This document shows positions 814 through 44,026 of a stretch of DNA of 44,026 nucleotides, piece after piece (positions within the stretch are counted from its first letter, which is position 1; each line of letters opens with the position of its first letter). The stretch lies in the IMG/VR virus record IMGVR_UViG_3300032258_000005, positions 1 to 44,026 of that record; one strand, given 5' to 3'. Origin of the DNA: a virus. Its lineage: Duplodnaviria > Caudoviricetes. The notes under the pieces are model-generated. The model did no database searches, was not told the origin of the DNA, and worked only from the letters and a program-made list of their open reading frames with translations. The position numbers were made by a program, and so were the translations under genes.

Positions 814-3225
814 ATGAACCCCCGCTACCTGTACCTAGACACCGAGACGTTTAGCGAGATTGATTTAACGGAGTGCGGAACCTACCGCTACGCCGAAAAC
901 GCCGAGGTTATGTTAATGACGTGGGCGTTTGACGATGGCCCCGTGCAGCTATGGGACCACAACGACGGCACGCCCCCGCCCGCGCTCGCCGAGTACGTCG
1001 CGTCTAACCCCGATGTGGTCGTGGTGGCGCACAATGCTATGTTCGACCGTAACGTGCTGAAGCGGGGCAATCTGAAACTAAACATACCTATCGAGCGCTG
1101 GCAGTGTACCGCCGTACAGGCGATGCAACACGCGTTGCCCGCCGGACTTAGCCCGTTAGGCAAGCTGCTCGGCTTAGCATCCGACACGGCCAAAGACAAG
1201 GCCGGCAATGCGCTAATAAAAAGGTTCTGTATGCGCAGCACGCGCCGCTACAATCCGTTGCTCGAGGCGCTGAAAGCAGTACCGCTGGCCACGGCGGCCG
1301 ATATCGGCGCGCACGTTTATGTCGGCGCGAACGTGCGCAAGGTAGGCGGGGGGAACCGCGGGACGTTGGATGGCCTAGACGGCTCGCTAGCTCTACCGTA
1401 TTCCGTGCGCGGGAAGCGCGTTAAGTACGCACGCCGGGCCGACCTGGTCGACGCCGCACGCGCTACGCACCCCGACGAAATGGTGACAGAACGGGTGCGT
1501 TACGACGCCGCCACGCACCCGGAAGAGTGGGCGGCGTTCCGCGCGTACGCGGCACAGGACATCGAAGCGTTACGCGCGGTACATAAATTACTACCGACGG
1601 TGAATTGGCAACCGGACGACGTGGCCGACTGGCACCTAGACCAGCGGATAAACGACCGCGGGTTTCGAGTCGACATGGGGCTGGCCGAGGCGGGTATGCA
1701 CGCCGCCGCCATCGAGAAACAGGCCATCGCGAAACGGTTTAGCGAGATTACCGGCGGGCCCGTCCCCACACAGCGCGCCAAGGTGCAAGCGTACATAAAC
1801 GCGCGGTGGGGGTTGTCCCTCACTAGCACCGCTAAGGACGTGATACACCCCCTGCTCGGGGACGCCAGCCAGCCGGTCGAGCTGCGCGAATTGGTCGGCC
1901 TAATGTTGGCGGCCAATAAAACCAGCACTTCCAAATATGGAAAGATACTCTACGCCGCGTGCGCCGATGGTTGGTTCCGGGGCGGGCTACAGTTTTCCGG
2001 CGCGATGCGCACGCGCAGGTGGGCGGGTAGGATATTCCAGCCACAAAACCTACCCTCACGCGGGCTGCCTGAAGAGGCGTTAATAGACGCGTACATCGAG
2101 GCGCTTAAAGCAGGCTGTCACGTGGCCATGTTTAAGGACTTGATGCTGTACGGCGCGGCCGCCCTGCGCGGGCTGGTAATAGCGGGCGGGGGCAAGACGT
2201 TACACATTGCTGATCTATCCAATATTGAGGGCCGCATCTTAGCTTGGATAGCGGGCGAGCAATGGAAGCTCGACGCGTTCGTGGAGTACGACGAAGGGCG
2301 CGGGCCAGACCTGTACAACATAACCGCGACGGGCATACTCGGCGGCGATCCGTACGAAGTCAGCAAGGCGAACCGCAACGCATTCGGTAAGGTGCCCGAC
2401 CTAGCGTTAGGATTCGAGGGCGGCGTGGCGGCGTTGCAAACCTTCGCGGCGGCGTACGGGATCAAGATGGCGGACCACTGGGCCACGATACAGCAGAACG
2501 TAAGCGCCGAGCTAGTCGACCGCGCACACGGCAACCTACGCTTTGCGGGCGTGCGGCTACTGCGCGACGCTTACCCGGGCGTGGAGCGCGGGCACCAATG
2601 GCCCGAGCCGCAGATAACGTGGGCAGTAAGTGAGGTGCTGCGTAGCGCGGAGATAGACGAGACGGAGTGGCTGGCCAGCGAGGCGGTAAAACTTGCTTGG
2701 CGCGACCGACACCCCGCCACCCAACAACTTTGGAGAGCATGCAAAGACGCCGCCACCGATGCGATACGTAACCCCGGCGAAGTATTCCGCGCCGGTCCGC
2801 TGCTCTCGTTCGAAGTGCGCACGATGCCGTCGGGCAATTGGCTACTGTGCCGGCTGCCGTCGGGTAAGTACCTCACGTATTACGACCCGCAACTTTCCGG
2901 CGGGGGCGGGATCGCCTACCAGGGGTACGGACAGACAGACAGCACAACGCGCGTATGGGGCACGCAGTACACTTACGGCGGTAAGTTCGTGGAGAACGCG
3001 TGCCAAGCCATCGCGGGCGACATACTCAAGGCCACGCTGCCCGGCATCGAGCAAGCCGGTTACGAGATAGTTTTAACGGTGCACGACGAAGCCGTAACGC
3101 AAGCGCCGGCAGGCCCCGCACACAACGCGGACGACCTGAGCCGGCTGCTATCCATCCGACCCGCATGGGCAGGCGGGCTGCCACTCTCGGCGGCTGGCTT
3201 CTCAGCGGATCGATACCGTAAATAA
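814..3225 (+). CDS. polA: Family A DNA polymerase with 3'-5' exonuclease domain
   Basis: ExoI YLDTET, ExoII AHNAMFD, ExoIII YAAQD; polymerase motif A ADLSNIEGR, motif B KVPDLALGFEGG, motif C TVHDE. Confidence 0.95.
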   Translation: MNPRYLYLDTETFSEIDLTECGTYRYAENAEVMLMTWAFDDGPVQLWDHNDGTPPPALAEYVASNPDVVVVAHNAMFDRNVLKRGNLKLNIPIERWQCTAVQAMQHALPAGLSPLGKLLGLASDTAKDKAGNALIKRFCMRSTRRYNPLLEALKAVPLATAADIGAHVYVGANVRKVGGGNRGTLDGLDGSLALPYSVRGKRVKYARRADLVDAARATHPDEMVTERVRYDAATHPEEWAAFRAYAAQDIEALRAVHKLLPTVNWQPDDVADWHLDQRINDRGFRVDMGLAEAGMHAAAIEKQAIAKRFSEITGGPVPTQRAKVQAYINARWGLSLTSTAKDVIHPLLGDASQPVELRELVGLMLAANKTSTSKYGKILYAACADGWFRGGLQFSGAMRTRRWAGRIFQPQNLPSRGLPEEALIDAYIEALKAGCHVAMFKDLMLYGAAALRGLVIAGGGKTLHIADLSNIEGRILAWIAGEQWKLDAFVEYDEGRGPDLYNITATGILGGDPYEVSKANRNAFGKVPDLALGFEGGVAALQTFAAAYGIKMADHWATIQQNVSAELVDRAHGNLRFAGVRLLRDAYPGVERGHQWPEPQITWAVSEVLRSAEIDETEWLASEAVKLAWRDRHPATQQLWRACKDAATDAIRNPGEVFRAGPLLSFEVRTMPSGNWLLCRLPSGKYLTYYDPQLSGGGGIAYQGYGQTDSTTRVWGTQYTYGGKFVENACQAIAGDILKATLPGIEQAGYEIVLTVHDEAVTQAPAGPAHNADDLSRLLSIRPAWAGGLPLSAAGFSADRYRK

Positions 3226-3663: not shown

Positions 3664-4145
3664 ACCAATCGATACAACAATGGGCGTTAAAGTGGGGCGT
3701 GTCGCTTGCGGCGTTACAAGATTTGCAACAGCAACTAGGCACGTTAAGCCACCCGCCCGCCGCGCCGGATGCCGGCACGAGCGAGGCCGCCGTGCAGGCG
3801 CAGTTAAGGCTCACGATGTCTAAGGCGGGCGGCCACTTGTGGCGCAATAATAACGGCGCGGGGTACTTAGACGATAGGTCGTTCGTCCGCTGGGGCCTAG
3901 CTAACGACTCGCAGAAAATGAACGAGCGCTTTAAATCGTCTGACTTAATCGGCATCAAGCCCGTTATCATCCGCGCGGATATGGTCGGCACCTCAATTGG
4001 CCAATTCGTCGCGCGTGAGGTTAAGCCGACCGGCTGGGCGTACGGCGACACTGACCGCGAGCGCGCACAGCTGGCGTTCATTTCACTTGTGTCGGCCTTG
4101 GGCGGCGACGCTAAATTCTCAACGGTGGGGCACGACGTCGGATGA
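3660..4145 (+). CDS. VRR-NUC-like endonuclease
   Basis: SEAAVQ...LWRNNNG...SSDLIG...FVAREVK, a PD-(D/E)xK pattern typical of phage VRR-NUC proteins. Confidence 0.8.
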   Translation: MNQSIQQWALKWGVSLAALQDLQQQLGTLSHPPAAPDAGTSEAAVQAQLRLTMSKAGGHLWRNNNGAGYLDDRSFVRWGLANDSQKMNERFKSSDLIGIKPVIIRADMVGTSIGQFVAREVKPTGWAYGDTDRERAQLAFISLVSALGGDAKFSTVGHDVG

Positions 4146-5141
4146 GCGGCGCTTACTATAACGAAATTGACCCGTTCGCCGCGCAGTGGTTGAGAGAACT
4201 AATAGCGGCGGGGCATATCGCACCCGGCGAAGTTGACGAGAGGAGCATAGAAGATGTTGAGCCGGAAGACTTGCGAGAGTTTACACAGTGCCACTTTTTC
4301 GCGGGAATTGGTGTCTGGAGCTACGCGCTTCGACGCGCTGGGTGGGCAGACGATACTCCAATTTGGACAGGTTCTTGCCCTTGCCAACCTTTCAGCGCGG
4401 CGGGCAAAGGCGATGGGTTTATTGATGAGCGGCATTTGTGGCCCGCATGGCACCACCTCATCAACGCGTGCCGACCGGAAGCCGTGTTGGGTGAGCAGGT
4501 TGCGAGCAAGGACGGACTTGCTTGGCTCGACCTTGTACAAACTGACTTGGCGGGATCGGGTTACGCCAGCGGGGCGGTCGATCTATGCGCTGCGGGCGTC
4601 GGTGCTCCGCACATCCGCCAACGACTTTGGTTCGTGGCCCACACCGACGACGCGGGACCACAAGGGCAAGAGCGGGGCGGGACGGCAAGAGCGGAAGGGG
4701 CACCCCCCCGGACACGCTGCCGAACGCGGCTCAGCTAACTACGTGGCCGACACCCCGAGCGAACGAGGGAGTAGGCGGGCCGCAGATCCCGGAGGGCAGA
4801 CAGGGCGGGATGGCCCTAAAATCGGCGGTACTGCTCGCCGCGTGGCCCACCCCGACCGCACAGGACTCGAGCAGGGGAGTGAAGCCCCCACGACCGCAGG
4901 ACACGGGCGTGCCACTGGGGCAACGGGTGGCAACGCTGGAACTCACGGCCCCGGCCCGACTAACGGCCACTGGCGAGAAGCTGACTGGCTTGGATGCAGG
5001 GATAATAAATGGCGGGCAGTTGAACCCGGCACATGCCCGCTGGTTGATGGCGCTCCCGCCCGAGTGGGACGATTGCGCGGTTACGGCAATGCAATTAACG
5101 CTGAGGCGGCGACGGAATTCATCCGGTCGTTAATTAGTTGA
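4142..5141 (+). CDS. DNA cytosine-C5 methyltransferase, large (alpha) polypeptide; frameshifted at C7 tract 4703-4709 as assembled
   Basis: Motif [32 protein letters not shown] in frame 4142-4738. Motif [10 protein letters not shown] lies in another frame ending at 5141. Removing one C joins them (332 aa). Confidence 0.85.
4425..5133 (+). CDS. Nested (beta) polypeptide of the C5 methyltransferase in an alternative frame; frameshifted at the same C7 tract
   Basis: Repeated WPTP motifs and motif IX-like [20 protein letters not shown] at 4425; removing one C gives a continuous 235-aa ORF. Confidence 0.7.
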
Positions 5142-34165: not shown

Positions 34166-35620
34166 GTGGCGCTGCTACACAGGGCGCGCCCTGTCAATAG
34201 GAAGCCGGACTTCAACGAGGGGCCCTCGCTGGACCGCGAGAGCCCGATAAACCGTGGGCTGGCCATCCGGTACCTCGCGAACGAGGGCGGCGGGGCCACC
34301 CTCCACGACTTAATCGGCGATACGGACATACTCACCGGAGGGGCTGCGTTCAGCGCTGACGGGGTCACTTATGACGGTATTAATGATATATCAAAGATTA
34401 ACAGCTCTCTATTAGACTTATCGTTAATTCCTCAAAATGGTTTCTCAGTATCCGTTGGTATAAATTGCGCACCACAAAACGACAGACGATTTTTCGGTGT
34501 CGGGTCAACAGGGTCTACTATACTTGGATTGGGTTTAGATAACGCTAGTCCATACTCAAGACTGCGCGTGTACCAGACAGTGCCATACGCCAATAATATG
34601 TGGACGGGTGTTGGTGGCCCACCTATAGCTACGGGTCAGGATGTTAACCTCGTCTTGGTCTTTGTTCCCGGTGAAACGGCCAAGGTGTATATAAACGGCG
34701 TGCTTGAGTTCACGATAAATCGTGTGCTGGGTGGCGGCACCGTTGCCACTCCGTACTCCGCTATAGGCGCCGCGATACGGGGGACAAGTGTAGACGGGTT
34801 TTCGTTCTATGGGGGCGGGGTACTGCACTTTAGTTTCTACCATCGTGCTCTGTCCGCGGAGGAGGGGGCCGCCCTCTCCGCCAACCCTTACCTGGGGCTA
34901 GCGGACGACGTGCGCCGGCTCCCCTTGGGCACCACGCCATCAGGGGGCACCACGTACACCTACACCGGCGACGGCGGCTTACTTACTGGCGGCGTAGCGC
35001 CCCACGGCTTTACTGCTAATTACACCGGCGACGGCGGTTTACTTACTGGCGGCGTAGCGCCCCACCGCTTTACAGCTAATTACACCGGCGACGGCGGCCT
35101 ACTAACCAGCGGCGTAGCGCCCCACCGCTTTGCCGCTAACTACGCCGGAGATGGTGGACTACTCACCGGAGGTGTAGCGCCCCACAGCTTTACCGCTAAC
35201 CATACCTGCGACGGCGGCTTACTTACGGGCGGCGTAGCGCCCCACCGCTTTACAGCTAATTACGCCGGAGATGGTGGGCTACTCGCCGGCGGGGCGGCCG
35301 ATGTAGCATTCACCGGCGCGGGCACAACGTACACTTACATCGGTACCGGCGGCCTACTCACCGGAGGTGTAGCGCCCCACAGTTTTACTGCTAATTACGC
35401 GGCGGACGGTGGTATAATTTCGGGAGGCACGGCCGCATTGTCTGTTGCCGTCGCCCCGTCCAGCTCGGGCGGTTTGCTCCCGGGCGGTGCCGCAATAGTG
35501 TCCGGCCCTACTGATACCGTGTTAGGCTTTATGCAAGCAGCGCTATCACTAACGCCCGCGATGTCGGGCGCGATACGTGTTTACCCCGTAATGTCGGGCA
35601 GTGCTAAAATATTGGAGTAA
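34166..35620 (+). CDS. LamG/concanavalin-like lectin domain protein with Gly-rich 20-aa repeats (putative fibre/adhesin)
   Basis: NEGGG..L.D, YDGIND, KVYING, YHRALSAEE LamG hallmarks; YTGDGGLLTGGVAPHxFTAN repeats. Confidence 0.8.
   Translation: MALLHRARPVNRKPDFNEGPSLDRESPINRGLAIRYLANEGGGATLHDLIGDTDILTGGAAFSADGVTYDGINDISKINSSLLDLSLIPQNGFSVSVGINCAPQNDRRFFGVGSTGSTILGLGLDNASPYSRLRVYQTVPYANNMWTGVGGPPIATGQDVNLVLVFVPGETAKVYINGVLEFTINRVLGGGTVATPYSAIGAAIRGTSVDGFSFYGGGVLHFSFYHRALSAEEGAALSANPYLGLADDVRRLPLGTTPSGGTTYTYTGDGGLLTGGVAPHGFTANYTGDGGLLTGGVAPHRFTANYTGDGGLLTSGVAPHRFAANYAGDGGLLTGGVAPHSFTANHTCDGGLLTGGVAPHRFTANYAGDGGLLAGGAADVAFTGAGTTYTYIGTGGLLTGGVAPHSFTANYAADGGIISGGTAALSVAVAPSSSGGLLPGGAAIVSGPTDTVLGFMQAALSLTPAMSGAIRVYPVMSGSAKILE
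34961..35410 (+). repeat. 60-nt tandem repeats (20 aa)
   Basis: Successive 60-nt sequence lines align; five full units plus two partial ones. Confidence 0.93.
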
Positions 35621-35626
35621 TGCGAC

Positions 35627-35947
35627 ATGGCCACGTTATTAGTGGGTAACGATTTAGTATTTGAATTGCGCGACTACACGAACGTGCTGACCGGCGCGCT
35701 AGTATCCGACGCGACCGTAACGCTCGTAGTGCTGGACGGGGCGGGGGATGAGCTGACGGGCGAAACATGGCCCCTAGCTATACCGCCCGCATCAGGCGAG
35801 CCAGGTGTATACCGGGCAGAATTAACGGAGGCATTGGCCGCATTACGCGGCGCGCCTTACCTGGGATTGGTGTACGCCACGGGTGGGACGGGCGGCCGAA
35901 CCGCCCGGTGGGAGATCGATATGCCCGCCCGGGTTAGGACGGGATAG
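35627..35947 (+). CDS. Ig-like / BppU-N-like small structural protein
   Basis: TG.LVSDATVTLVV, G.Y.A pattern; GGAG RBS. Confidence 0.65.
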   Translation: MATLLVGNDLVFELRDYTNVLTGALVSDATVTLVVLDGAGDELTGETWPLAIPPASGEPGVYRAELTEALAALRGAPYLGLVYATGGTGGRTARWEIDMPARVRTG

Positions 35948-35972
35948 GCAGCACTTTGCGGTTAGGCCCTTG

Positions 35973-36614
35973 TTAGCAGGCAAGTTCAATCTTACATGCT
36001 TTCATTATCTGCTCACCTAAAAACTTAGTGTAAGCAGGCGGTATCGCTTGTGCTAATTCTTTCTGCCCTAGCCAATCGATACCCATTGCCTCCCTGGCAA
36101 ATTGCACTCCTGAAAAATGCCCCACTACTTGTATAAATTCACCGAGTACAGGTTTGCGCCCCATCTTTGTATTTTTTGCTACATGCTCCGGGTGTATCGG
36201 TACGTTTAATTTAATGTTACTTTCAAATAATCTATGCCTATATGTTTTTAAGCCAAACATTGATCCGCATAAAACAACCGGTTTAATTAATGGCGCATCC
36301 ATTGTGTTTTCAATTATAAACGGCTTGCCTATTTTTATTAAGGCTTCCCTGGTTCGCTCAATAAAGCACTCATAAACTTTGCCATTAGCCTTATGGGTTA
36401 ATGTTGCCTTTGTATTGTTCTGGCAAGGCGGGCTTGCGTGTATTGCATCGTACTTATCGTGGTTATTTAATAAATACTCAATAGCGTCGGCCTGTATAAA
36501 TTCAAACGGGTATTTTGGTTGCGGATTTATATCTATACCGGTTACTTCAAATCCTGCCTGGTGGTAACCCATGCCTGCACCACCTCCACAGCAAAATAAA
36601 TCTAAAATACGCAT
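35973..36614 (-). CDS. Compact DNA cytosine-C5 methyltransferase-like protein (cassette 1)
   Basis: ILDLFCCGGG, ASPPCQ, IIENT, RHRLFE, ELAQAIPPAY; AGGAG RBS; AT-rich codons. Confidence 0.9.
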   Translation of the reverse strand: MRILDLFCCGGGAGMGYHQAGFEVTGIDINPQPKYPFEFIQADAIEYLLNNHDKYDAIHASPPCQNNTKATLTHKANGKVYECFIERTREALIKIGKPFIIENTMDAPLIKPVVLCGSMFGLKTYRHRLFESNIKLNVPIHPEHVAKNTKMGRKPVLGEFIQVVGHFSGVQFAREAMGIDWLGQKELAQAIPPAYTKFLGEQIMKACKIELAC

Positions 36615-36639
36615 TCGTTGCTACTCCTGTGCTATTGCC

Positions 36640-36722
36640 TGCTAACAACAACTTCAAAATGATTGTCTACAGTTCGCTACGCTCTCAAAAACGTAGCCAA
36701 CATCTTAAGTTAAAGGTTATGT
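36640..36722 (+). other. attC recombination site
   Basis: R'' TGCTAAC-5nt-L'' CTTCAAAA ... L' TCTTAAG-6nt-R' GTTATGT; unpaired C and A on the left arm; inner stem GCTACG/CGTAGC. Confidence 0.85.
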
Positions 36723-36908
36723 GCTCGGTGGCGGCTTCAGCTTGTGCCGCTCCGTAAGAGCACTCTCGATCAGTAATGCCCGATTCGTGCCGGGCTGTTC
36801 ATCCATCCATTGCCATAGCCATTCCGGCAATCTGACAGAGCGGGCCGTTTTTTTGAGCAACGGCGGGGCAGGCTTCCGGCCTGCCCCTTCTCTTGCGCCC
36901 CCGCTCAT
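36717..36908 (-). CDS. Small DNA-binding protein, ribbon-helix-helix-like (cassette 2)
   Basis: GGAREGAGRKP followed by SVRLPEWLWQWM...RALLIESAL. Confidence 0.75.
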   Translation of the reverse strand: MSGGAREGAGRKPAPPLLKKTARSVRLPEWLWQWMDEQPGTNRALLIESALTERHKLKPPPST

Positions 36909-37078
36909 GCGTCCTCTGCGTCGAACCAGTCGCTCTCGGCCTGGGCCAGCTCTGTAGCGTAGGCTTCCAGTTCGTCAATCTCGGCCATCTCACCAAATGA
37001 CAGGTGGCTGTATTTTCCCCACAAGTCAACAGGGATCAGGTTTTGCATTTTTTCAATAATTTCGTTCTGAGTAGTCAT
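36905..37078 (-). CDS. Small acidic hypothetical protein (cassette 2)
   Basis: GAGGA RBS before ATG 37078; stop overlaps next ATG. Confidence 0.75.
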   Translation of the reverse strand: MTTQNEIIEKMQNLIPVDLWGKYSHLSFGEMAEIDELEAYATELAQAESDWFDAEDA

Positions 37079-37127
37079 GGTGTTTTCCTCATTTTCCGGT
37101 TTGAGCCATTCCCTAACCGTTGAATAC

Positions 37128-37156
37128 AGTATGTACATCATTCAGAATAATGTCAA
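37128..37156 (-). promoter_or_regulatory. Cassette-internal promoter
   Basis: TTGACA-17nt-CATACT with an A-rich upstream element. Confidence 0.75.
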
Positions 37157-37192
37157 TACGTTTTTCAAAATAAATCGCACATAGCCACCTCC

Positions 37193-37642
37193 TCACACCA
37201 CGCCCCTAGCGTGACGCACGAACTCGCACCAACAGTCCACCAGCCAGCCCGGCCCCGCCCCGTGCAGGTTGACGCCTTCAACCGTGGCGCCCGCCCCAGC
37301 CCGCACGAACTCCAGGCAGCCCACCTCCGCGCTCTTCAACGTCCAGCCTTTAAACGACCCGTTACGCACCATGACAGCATAATACAGTTCGCCCTCAAAG
37401 CCCTGCGTGCGCTTGCCCCGTTTGCGGTTCGGCTTACCGTCCGGCCCGTATCGATCTGGCCAAATTTCCTGCGGCGTTACGCCTATCGCCCCCGCAATGA
37501 GGCGTTCCATCCGCGGGTAGGGCTTATTTAGTGCCAGCTTGGGCGCGTGGCGGCTCAACCCCACCTCACGCGCCAAGCCCGCCAGCGAATAGCCTTTAAG
37601 CTTTAGCTGGTGTCTAACCCATGTTCTCGTTCCATCTTTCAT
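37193..37642 (-). CDS. Ner/Nlp-like HTH transcriptional regulator with C-terminal extension
   Basis: LKLKGYSLAGLARE.GLS...PYPRMERLIA.AIGV.PQEIWPDRY matches the Mu Ner family. ATG 37642 preferred. Confidence 0.85.
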   Translation of the reverse strand: MKDGTRTWVRHQLKLKGYSLAGLAREVGLSRHAPKLALNKPYPRMERLIAGAIGVTPQEIWPDRYGPDGKPNRKRGKRTQGFEGELYYAVMVRNGSFKGWTLKSAEVGCLEFVRAGAGATVEGVNLHGAGPGWLVDCWCEFVRHARGVV

Positions 37643-43344: not shown

Positions 43345-44026
43345 CAGCAGAGGTAATGACACCCGTGGGCCGCATCGTCAACGGACACCCGATGGCACGC
43401 ACACCCGTGATAGATGAGCGTACACAGCAGCAAAAACTAAATCGCAACGGCGAGCCCCGTCTAAGCTCGTATTTCGCGCTAGCGATCCCCAAGCAGGGCG
43501 AGACGCATTGGAGTCAGACGGAGTGGGGGCGGGCCATCCACGCGCTCGGCGTCGCCGCGCACCCGAACGGCGAGACAAACAATTTGAGCTACTCCTGGAA
43601 AATAGCGGACGGTGATAGCTCGCTGCCGAACAAAAAAGGTAAAGTGCCTAATCAGCGCGAGGGGTGGCCGGGGCACTGGGTGCTACACCCGTCTACTGAC
43701 TTAGCGGTGCGCTGCTATCACGAAGGGCGCTTTGCTGAGCACGAGATAATACAGCGTAAGGAAGAGATCAAAACCGGCGACTACGTCCGCGTGCTCCTCT
43801 CGCTAAAAGGCAACGGGTCGTCAGACTCGCCGGGACTGTATATGACACCCGAGTTAGTCTCTCTGTTTCGTGCGGGTATCGAGATACAGACGGGCGGCGG
43901 CCCCTCCGCTGCGGATGCGTTCGGTGGTACAACCGGCGTACTCCCGCAAGGGGCTATGATCGACACGACCGTGCAGCAACCGCCGATGCAGCAACCGCCG
44001 ATGCAGCAACCGCCGATGCAGCAACC
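43341..44026 (+). CDS. ssDNA-binding protein (DUF2815-like), 5' part; continues at position 1; not in the ORF track
   Basis: ATGA overlap at 43341; MTAEVMTPVGRIVNG...KIADGD...GWPGHW...IKTGDYVRV...PGLY; open to the contig end; lies between the DUF2800-like gene and the polymerase. Confidence 0.82.
   Translation, partial: MTAEVMTPVGRIVNGHPMARTPVIDERTQQQKLNRNGEPRLSSYFALAIPKQGETHWSQTEWGRAIHALGVAAHPNGETNNLSYSWKIADGDSSLPNKKGKVPNQREGWPGHWVLHPSTDLAVRCYHEGRFAEHEIIQRKEEIKTGDYVRVLLSLKGNGSSDSPGLYMTPELVSLFRAGIEIQTGGGPSAADAFGGTTGVLPQGAMIDTTVQQPPMQQPPMQQPPMQQ

Follow-up and report, generated by a model that had tools for sequence, protein, structure and literature searches.

An intact attC site and antisense gene units of integron type in a phage genome

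How does a phage that encodes no integrase come to carry gene units of integron type, and does it still exchange them? Gene cassettes usually carry their gene on the attC top strand, with its end at R'', and the origin of such cassettes is a long-standing open question. This sense layout is not seen in the locus described here, where the genes lie on the bottom strand, whereas those of phage TJE1 are sense. The window, that is, the entire stretch of DNA analyzed, is a whole phage record of 44,026 bases (rated 100% complete; 60% GC) with genes for terminase, capsid, a PolA-type polymerase and a helicase; the same 15-base repeat encoding QQPPM is found at both of its ends (1-100 and 43970-44026), so that the record probably closes into a circle there. 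A preliminary description, made from the letters alone, had reported an integron-type cassette array in this genome. We consider it probable that the locus is a two-cassette piece of integron type, with antisense genes, one intact attC and decayed outer sites, likely assembled by IntI in trans and now probably largely frozen.

The methyltransferase cassette and its attC site

The locus lies at the junction where a plus-strand gene block (to 35947) meets a minus-strand block (from 37193). The flanking genes and the first cassette are arranged as follows.

35627..35947, plus strand: left flanking phage gene, 106 aa, from the list of open reading frames; last of the plus-strand block and convergent with the cassettes
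35973-36716: cassette 1, with its gene on the attC bottom strand
35972..35983, plus strand: core site (G|TT) of cassette 1; on the opposite strand it includes the stop codon of the methyltransferase
35973..36614, minus strand: C5-cytosine DNA methyltransferase-like gene, orphan, 213 aa (phrog_363, E 2e-37; PF00145, 22.2 bits with a cut-off of 22)
36624..36628, minus strand: Shine-Dalgarno-like AGGAG of the methyltransferase, read from the sequence, within cassette 1
36640..36722, plus (top) strand: intact attC, 83 bp, from covariance model, geometry detector and folds
36640-36646, 36652-36659 (8 nt), 36703-36709 (7 nt) and 36716-36722, plus strand: attC boxes R'', L'', L' and R', respectively
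37193..37642, minus strand: right flanking Ner-like HTH gene (PF13693, 65 bits; phrog_769), on the same strand as the cassette genes

The 106-aa gene belongs to no Pfam or PHROG family, and no viral relative of it was found; upstream of it, positions 34166-35620 encode a LamG-domain protein with Gly-rich repeats of about 20 residues (60-base units). A tyrosine recombinase domain (PF00589) was absent from the 44-kb genome and present in 14 of 14 control genomes, and a tblastn search of the genome with the IntI of an integron-bearing locus, L068, gave a best value of only E 0.018. The preliminary statement that the phage has no integrase is thus upheld.

The attC at 36640-36722 is real. Its boxes, separated by a 5-nt (R''-L'') and a 6-nt (L'-R') spacer and including the conserved AAC and GTT, lie where the preliminary description had put them, as does the core G|TT at 35972. 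A covariance model (R1) of 31 bottom strands from other loci, with the site of the window left out, matched 36640-36722 on the minus strand at 30.6 bits (E 2e-4), the runner-up place in the 44 kb reaching 12.8 bits; a search with an attC covariance model had been the first check proposed, and it came out in favor of the site. The same model found three sites in phage TJE1, the control (27.1-29.5 bits), two of which (27.1 and 29.5 bits) are given as IntI1-validated in the part of the PMC9892861 supplement that we consulted. It found none in phage P12002L (48,000 of 48,689 bases searched), so that its sensitivity is limited and divergent sites could escape. A geometry detector marked 36640-36722 as the sole site in the window, with a mean of 0 in 100 block shuffles and 0 matches across 1.45 Mb of shuffled loci, and Rfam returned nothing above the gathering score. 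Positions 36676-36687, in the terminal region of the attC, share a 12-base motif with the validated site PH101_attC1.

The site folds weakly. At minimum energy, the native bottom strand forms a short GC hairpin within the terminal region instead of the attC stem (z -1.07), with -9.2 kcal/mol vs -7.5 kcal/mol for the fold constrained to attC. In the constrained fold, an unpaired G and T lie opposite C36655 and A36662, the extrahelical positions, as had been predicted from the unpaired C and A of the left arm. The probability that the R and L boxes are paired is 0.02 for the native site and 0.18 for the circle form of cassette 1, which folds better and has a 10-bp R stem, compared with 0.56-0.84 for the TJE1 sites and 0.11-0.53 for five other sites. 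Paired R and L boxes, the two extrahelical bases (G and T) and a central spacer left unpaired can therefore all be found in this attC, weakly, and the proposed check by folding was answered only in part: the attC fold is available under constraint and is not the minimum-energy structure.

The core of cassette 1 agrees with the inverse core at 36635-36646 in 12 of 12 positions, a pairing unique in the genome; among the 659 plus-strand GTT sites of the genome, a single one has a perfect 11-base inverse 300-1200 nt downstream. The cassette is also distinct in composition, and the AT-rich block of the preliminary description is borne out, with 40% GC in cassette 1, 51% in unit 2 and 60% genome-wide. 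GC3 of the methyltransferase is 37%, vs 66-73% in five core phage genes; together with the 40% GC, this marks cassette 1 as foreign to this phage. The translation contains LFCCGG and SPPCQ, which we take to be the SAM-binding motif I and the catalytic Pro-Cys motif IV, and the gene product is predicted to be a phage-type C5 methyltransferase, short at 213 aa; PADLOC matched the methyltransferase alone. Elsewhere in the window, another C5 methyltransferase-like gene (PF00145) lies at 4142-5141 and is overlapped by long open reading frames in other frames.

A terminator-like hairpin beside an ordinary phage moron, resembling attC by chance and having no link to integrons, would also account for a short GC hairpin as the minimum-energy fold and for a methyltransferase, a typical phage gene. 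Given the model score, a complete set of boxes in attC geometry, the two extrahelical bases, a 12-base core pair that is unique in the genome and homologues that are cassettes beside IntI (see below), we consider this reading highly improbable.

Unit 2 and the outer ends of the locus

The second unit and the two ends of the locus comprise the following features.

36717 to about 37185: unit 2, all genes on the attC bottom strand
36717..36908, minus strand: RHH-like protein, 63 aa, with a GGxREGAGRKP N-terminus, a predicted regulator; its stop lies inside the core of cassette 2
36905..37078, minus strand: acidic protein, 57 aa (pI 4.05), occupying the slot of cassette 2 that varies between loci
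37079..37127, minus strand: conserved leader with ribosome-binding site, aligning with L144-L147, L206, L208 and L209
37128..37156, minus strand: predicted sigma-70-type promoter, TTGACA-17-CATACT, facing through both cassettes
35960..35972, plus strand: left boundary, in which an L'-like box is followed, after a spacer of 5 nt, by the G at the crossover point; upstream, the R''/L'' half is missing
37177..37185, plus strand: decayed inverse core (R'') of cassette 2, GCACATAGC, with AAC changed to AGC; 8/9 inverse of core 2
37186..37222, plus strand: what may be left of a second attC, with boxes resembling L'' and L' and no stem; this stretch overlaps the Ner-like open reading frame at its 3' end

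As had been noted before, the attC bottom strand carries all three genes of the two units, and the TAA stop at the end of each unit overlaps the core TTA. The RHH-like protein has 57 homologues, no Pfam or PHROG family and no Foldseek match at E<=0.001. Its structural model (pLDDT 84) shows an extended segment followed by two helices; the top rows of a VIA comparison were mostly RHH proteins (best Z 3.8, rmsd 3.2, 47 aligned), and an Atlas search led only to clusters without names, most of them viral, and to a weak hint of CcdA. Neither this protein nor the methyltransferase had a sequence match in the PDB. The 57-aa protein shows 52% identity to a protein of plasmid pEU30, has one other homologue, and matches no known anti-defense family, Acr or Aca. 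On the plasmid (L148:2226-2598), the 57-aa homologue is encoded directly upstream of a small RHH-like gene, with no attC match. The gene in this slot between promoter and RHH gene differs between loci, the occupants being non-homologous, with a pI below 5.2 in 12 of 17, the window counted. A pattern search for the leader yielded seven loci on six viral contigs. The promoter agrees with the consensus in 10 of 12 positions, which is no evidence alone (a scan found three sites vs 2.3 in shuffles), and it is kept in register in related cassettes.

Considered as a gene cassette, unit 2 has its core and an 8/9 inverse core with a broken AAC, and its closing attC is absent: the covariance model detected none after GCACATAGC (E<=5). 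The preliminary claim of a second unit extending to this point accordingly holds as far as the inverse core goes. The 8/9 match is weak alone, with 53 of 659 GTT sites having an equal one within 300-1200 nt and 5 of 656 in a fixed 40-nt slot, and is credible only because of the homologous cassettes. The R''-like sequence lies 29 nt from the -35 box, compared with 28 nt in L205 and 38-43 nt in L144-L147, L206, L208 and L209. MAFFT places the boxes at 37186-37222 roughly in register with complete cassettes, which may be chance, and the covariance model has no match there. On the minus strand of 37165-37192, GGAGG and ATG overlap the decayed R'', opening a 5-codon reading frame right after the Ner-like gene.

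On the left, the boundary has the register of L'-spacer-R' in the L145 and L146 sites. An L'-like box accompanies 26 of the 1276 GTT sites of the window, so that its presence is suggestive only, and the covariance model has no match at this boundary, which may be what remains of an attC (its 3' half) or a simple site resembling attI. By eye, we also considered the two outer half sites as one attC opened in its loop; their L boxes agree in 5 of 7 positions, and their stems do not pair. The array originally described is thus overstated: a single attC is intact, the left end amounts to a half site, and at the right end R'' has decayed.

A search for relatives with an empty site, also proposed in the preliminary description, was fruitless: neither such relatives nor close relatives were found via the left flanking gene, the helicase, the Ner-like gene or regional blastn. 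The helicase led to 27 loci (35-56% identity) with no shared flanking genes at the place of the cassettes and no attC, the Ner-like gene to three loci (40-49% over 65-77 residues), and in blastn of the region against phages and plasmids no record spanned 80% of it. The excision joint was absent from one DNA contig set, possibly the source of the genome, and contigs drop rare variants.

These results bear on whether the locus is a live exchange platform, at which the left end would act as a double-stranded attI-like site and cassettes would be swapped whenever IntI is present in the infected cell. The box-5 nt-G|TT spacing of the left site, the better fold of the circle form of cassette 1 (p 0.18, with its 10-bp R stem) and the long, varied arrays and duplicated cassette of related phages (L203, L206) would fit such a platform. 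We nevertheless regard it as quite unlikely, because the locus comprises two units only, one without attC, the searches for relatives brought up none that carries other cassettes here, and none of the 27 distant helicase relatives has a model match. With broken outer sites and with neither an empty-site relative nor an excision joint, a largely frozen two-cassette relic is likelier than an exchange platform. The two units can still be called cassettes of integron type with an external recombinase, whereas active exchange at this locus, the other part of the original proposal, is not borne out given the broken outer sites and the weak fold.

Related units in phage arrays and integrons

The nearest relatives of the promoter-RHH module, in 15 viral loci (L144-L147, L202-L211 and L268), were compared with unit 2. 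In 10 of the 15 (L144-L147, L203-L206, L208 and L209), a core and a matching R'' beyond the promoter delimit an antisense cassette, with the G|TT core at the RHH stop or at most 14 bases away. The other five lack one or both ends, L268 having only R''-attC and L202, L207, L210 and L211 neither. The promoter-RHH cassette of L204 (764-830) has a perfect core/R'' pair, and its core is preceded by a palindrome that is not an attC, an arrangement like that of an insertion at a secondary or attI-like site.

The comparison also allows a history with a single off-target insertion to be weighed. Here IntI would have placed the methyltransferase cassette alone at a GTT (attG-type) of the RHH stop, producing a SALIN; the RHH module would already have been resident as an ordinary phage block, and GCACATAGC would be chance or leftover promoter-flank sequence. 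One integrated circle yields exactly a core, an attC and then the TT of the target, IntI uses 5'-GWT-3' sites according to the portion available to us of the Loot preprint, the GC content of the two units differs (40% and 51%), letters similar to GCACATAGC stand just upstream of R'' in L146, and the module occurs without cassette ends in L202, L207, L210 and L211. Against this, G|TT of unit 2 falls at the RHH stop as in five complete cassettes (L146, L147, L203, L204 and L206), the R''-like sequence is the inverse of unit 2's own core at the spacing of L205, and an L'-like box stands in register on the left side. On balance, we judge a lone off-target insertion unlikely and retain the two-cassette reading.

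Model R1 was further run on 66 loci, including 35 RHH loci and 27 helicase loci. It gave 40 matches: 39 are spread over 11 of these RHH loci, and L150 holds the remaining one. In all 39 (25 training members and 14 new sites), the attC bottom strand is the strand of the RHH gene. Across the 28 cassettes of these loci, a core and the R'' of the same cassette agree at 4.9 of 6 variable positions, compared with 2.5 for cross pairs. Open reading frames led by a Shine-Dalgarno sequence occupy the bottom strand in 23 of the 28 cassettes and the top strand in 7 of 28; because few reading frames match a PHROG (1 of 27 on the bottom strand, 0 of 24 on the top strand), the coding strand of most neighboring cassettes rests on the calls of reading frames and Shine-Dalgarno sequences. 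The only PHROG-named frame is an N6-type methyltransferase cassette in L206; over 220 residues, it shares 69.5% identity with the cassette that comes first in L068. This identity is the clearest sign of traffic between phage arrays and IntI integrons. Duplications occur in these arrays: in L203, an identical 338-base cassette is present twice (1503-1840 and 2730-3067), flanking the promoter-RHH cassette, and L147 holds two copies of the promoter-leader (1431-1510 and about 2150-2240), each followed by a different small gene.

Two loci encode an integron integrase themselves. L068 (TIGR02249, 427 bits) has two antisense methyltransferase cassettes first and sense genes after; the methyltransferase of the second, 68% identical to that of the window and antisense, stops 40 bases from the core, so that its boundary differs from the one in the window. 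The chromosomal status of L068 was judged on 6.6 kb of a 72-kb contig. Within L068:2828-5635, the first open reading frame is readable from inside the attC on the bottom strand. The viral contig L209 encodes a divergent IntI (TIGR02249, 468 bits), and the promoter-RHH unit is its first cassette. In L209:2017-5133, this IntI lies beside an excisionase-like open reading frame and a phage integrase, with the antisense array on the other side, forming a phage-borne complete integron. An integrase used by a phage therefore need not be that of the host, which leaves the preliminary inference of a host integron integrase correct in that the recombinase must come from outside this genome and too narrow as to its source.

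The methyltransferase family presents a more mixed picture. Its homologue set comprises 142 loci (63 viral and 79 metagenomic, with duplicates; the contig of the window itself, L064, was left out), five of which have attC model matches (E<=0.5): L068, L023, L141, L130 and, weakly, L087. The last four are sense methyltransferase cassettes in phage-like surroundings, where open reading frames of the family run into the attC top strand, and antisense orientation is thus no rule for this family. No attC accompanies the closest relatives (77%; L001-L003 and L065-L067) or a Vibrio phage gene, all of them ordinary phage genes. In a quick tree of 44 of the 118 distinct rows, the methyltransferase of the window joins L003 and the Vibrio phage gene, apart from L068 (support 93-94), which suggests separate cassette origins of the two. 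The proposed comparison of cassette homologues hence had two outcomes, with homologous cassettes beside IntI in L068 and L209 and with bare phage genes as the closest methyltransferases. As the family exists bare (most loci), as an antisense phage cassette, antisense beside IntI and sense in phage-like loci, it points to repeated formation of cassettes from phage genes and to phage-integron traffic.

Two wider searches were made. A genome scan for similar attC sites returned two loci, a plausible one (L150) and one inside a coding region (L151); L150:1866-2587, from a gammaproteobacterial MAG, has an attC like that of the window followed by a sense pair of antitoxin-toxin-like genes. The promoter-plus-R'' pattern led to 50 viral loci, in which the geometry detector found no site; two of them overlap the site-bearing L146 and L147, whose sites the detector missed, and the null result for the 50 loci is uninformative, given this insensitivity.

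Proposed history and comparison with known systems

In the history that we favor, the two units would have been joined by IntI supplied in trans, by a host integron or by an IntI-carrying phage such as L209. IntI would cut the folded bottom strand at G|TT, and units would move between phage arrays and integrons; those found here may have reached the phage via IntI or by ordinary mosaic recombination, the outer sites being lost afterwards. The inner attC could still take new cassettes, whereas excision of either unit would require an outer site, which no longer folds. Related units in other phages and beside IntI make it likely that phages and integrons trade such genes, so that the notion of a vehicle or reservoir of cassettes, put forward in the preliminary description, fits the related phage group and applies less to this genome.

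The genes face away from an integron's Pc; we propose that they would go unexpressed in bacterial integrons and that a phage would express them. Starting at the promoter of cassette 2, a single early transcript would cover the genes for the small acidic and RHH-like proteins, cross the attC and include the methyltransferase, in line with the neighboring minus-strand genes, and the RHH-like protein may repress this promoter. The purpose would be counter-defense, with an orphan methyltransferase directed against restriction and a small protein in an acr-aca-like layout; this role is suggested by the orphan methyltransferase and by the likeness of the layout to acr-aca loci. A promoter-regulator cassette offers a concrete route of expression for antisense arrays and can serve as bait for anti-defense genes.

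A broader scheme, in our view somewhat less likely than not, is that phages run a mirror-image cassette system on integron machinery and act as a factory for integron cassettes carrying counter-defense genes. Halves of attC would come to frame ordinary phage genes on the coding strand, a promoter-repressor cassette like unit 2 would amount to a backward, mobile Pc, and the cassettes would pass via IntI into integrons, at first positions and facing away from Pc, as in L068. If so, phage counter-defense cassettes would mirror the anti-phage cassettes of bacterial integrons. Taken alone, the locus of the window is a small, decayed example, and its value lies in its links to L068, L206 and L209, which connect a family of phage genes with a cassette that brings its own promoter and with two integrons that have IntI.

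Arrays of attC in phages have been published before: in the parts of Qi et al. 2023 (PMC9892861) that we consulted, 17 CALINs in phages are reported, along with five cassettes for methyltransferases and activity of IntI1 on phage sites, a CALIN is defined by at least two attC sites close together, and the attC sites of P12002L are described as divergent in direction. The words antisense, opposite and reverse are absent from its main text, and its figures and Dryad annotation may show antisense examples. In the literature that we searched, which lay outside subscription journals, no paper on antisense phage cassette arrays was found, and the antisense layout is, within that literature, the new part.

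Compared with acr-aca operons and anti-defense clusters, the locus is similar in that a small gene of variable identity precedes a conserved small one for a predicted DNA-binding protein, close to an orphan methyltransferase gene. The likeness is one of layout only, as the regulator here is RHH-like whereas Aca proteins are HTH proteins in the sections of bioRxiv 10.1101/2020.05.22.110304 available to us.

In complete integrons, as outlined in the portion of PMC8191803 consulted, IntI binds folded attC bottom strands, excises cassettes by attC x attC recombination and inserts them by attI x attC recombination. The phage locus shares with them the attC anatomy and the core/inverse-core footprint, and homologous cassettes occur in the integrons L068 and L209. 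It differs in having no IntI and no demonstrable attI or Pc, and its expression would oppose the array, starting from a cassette-borne promoter. The phage CALINs of TJE1, PH101 and P12002L resemble it in their attC sites without integrase and in their methyltransferase cargo, and the site score is like that of TJE1; they differ from it in that it has one intact attC instead of at least two, and bottom-strand genes where those annotated in TJE1 are on the top strand.

In the part of the preprint by Loot et al. (bioRxiv 10.1101/2022.09.11.507474) that we consulted, IntI inserts cassettes at GWT sites, and loss of attC can domesticate a cassette. Like SALINs and attG insertions so described, the locus combines a single attC and a gene with the absence of an integrase, and arrival by IntI at a GWT is possible; unlike the SALINs of that part of the preprint, which are in bacterial genomes, it lies in a phage, includes a second cassette without its site, has antisense genes and carries a promoter in the downstream unit. 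Formally, the locus is a SALIN, and neither a CALIN nor an integron.
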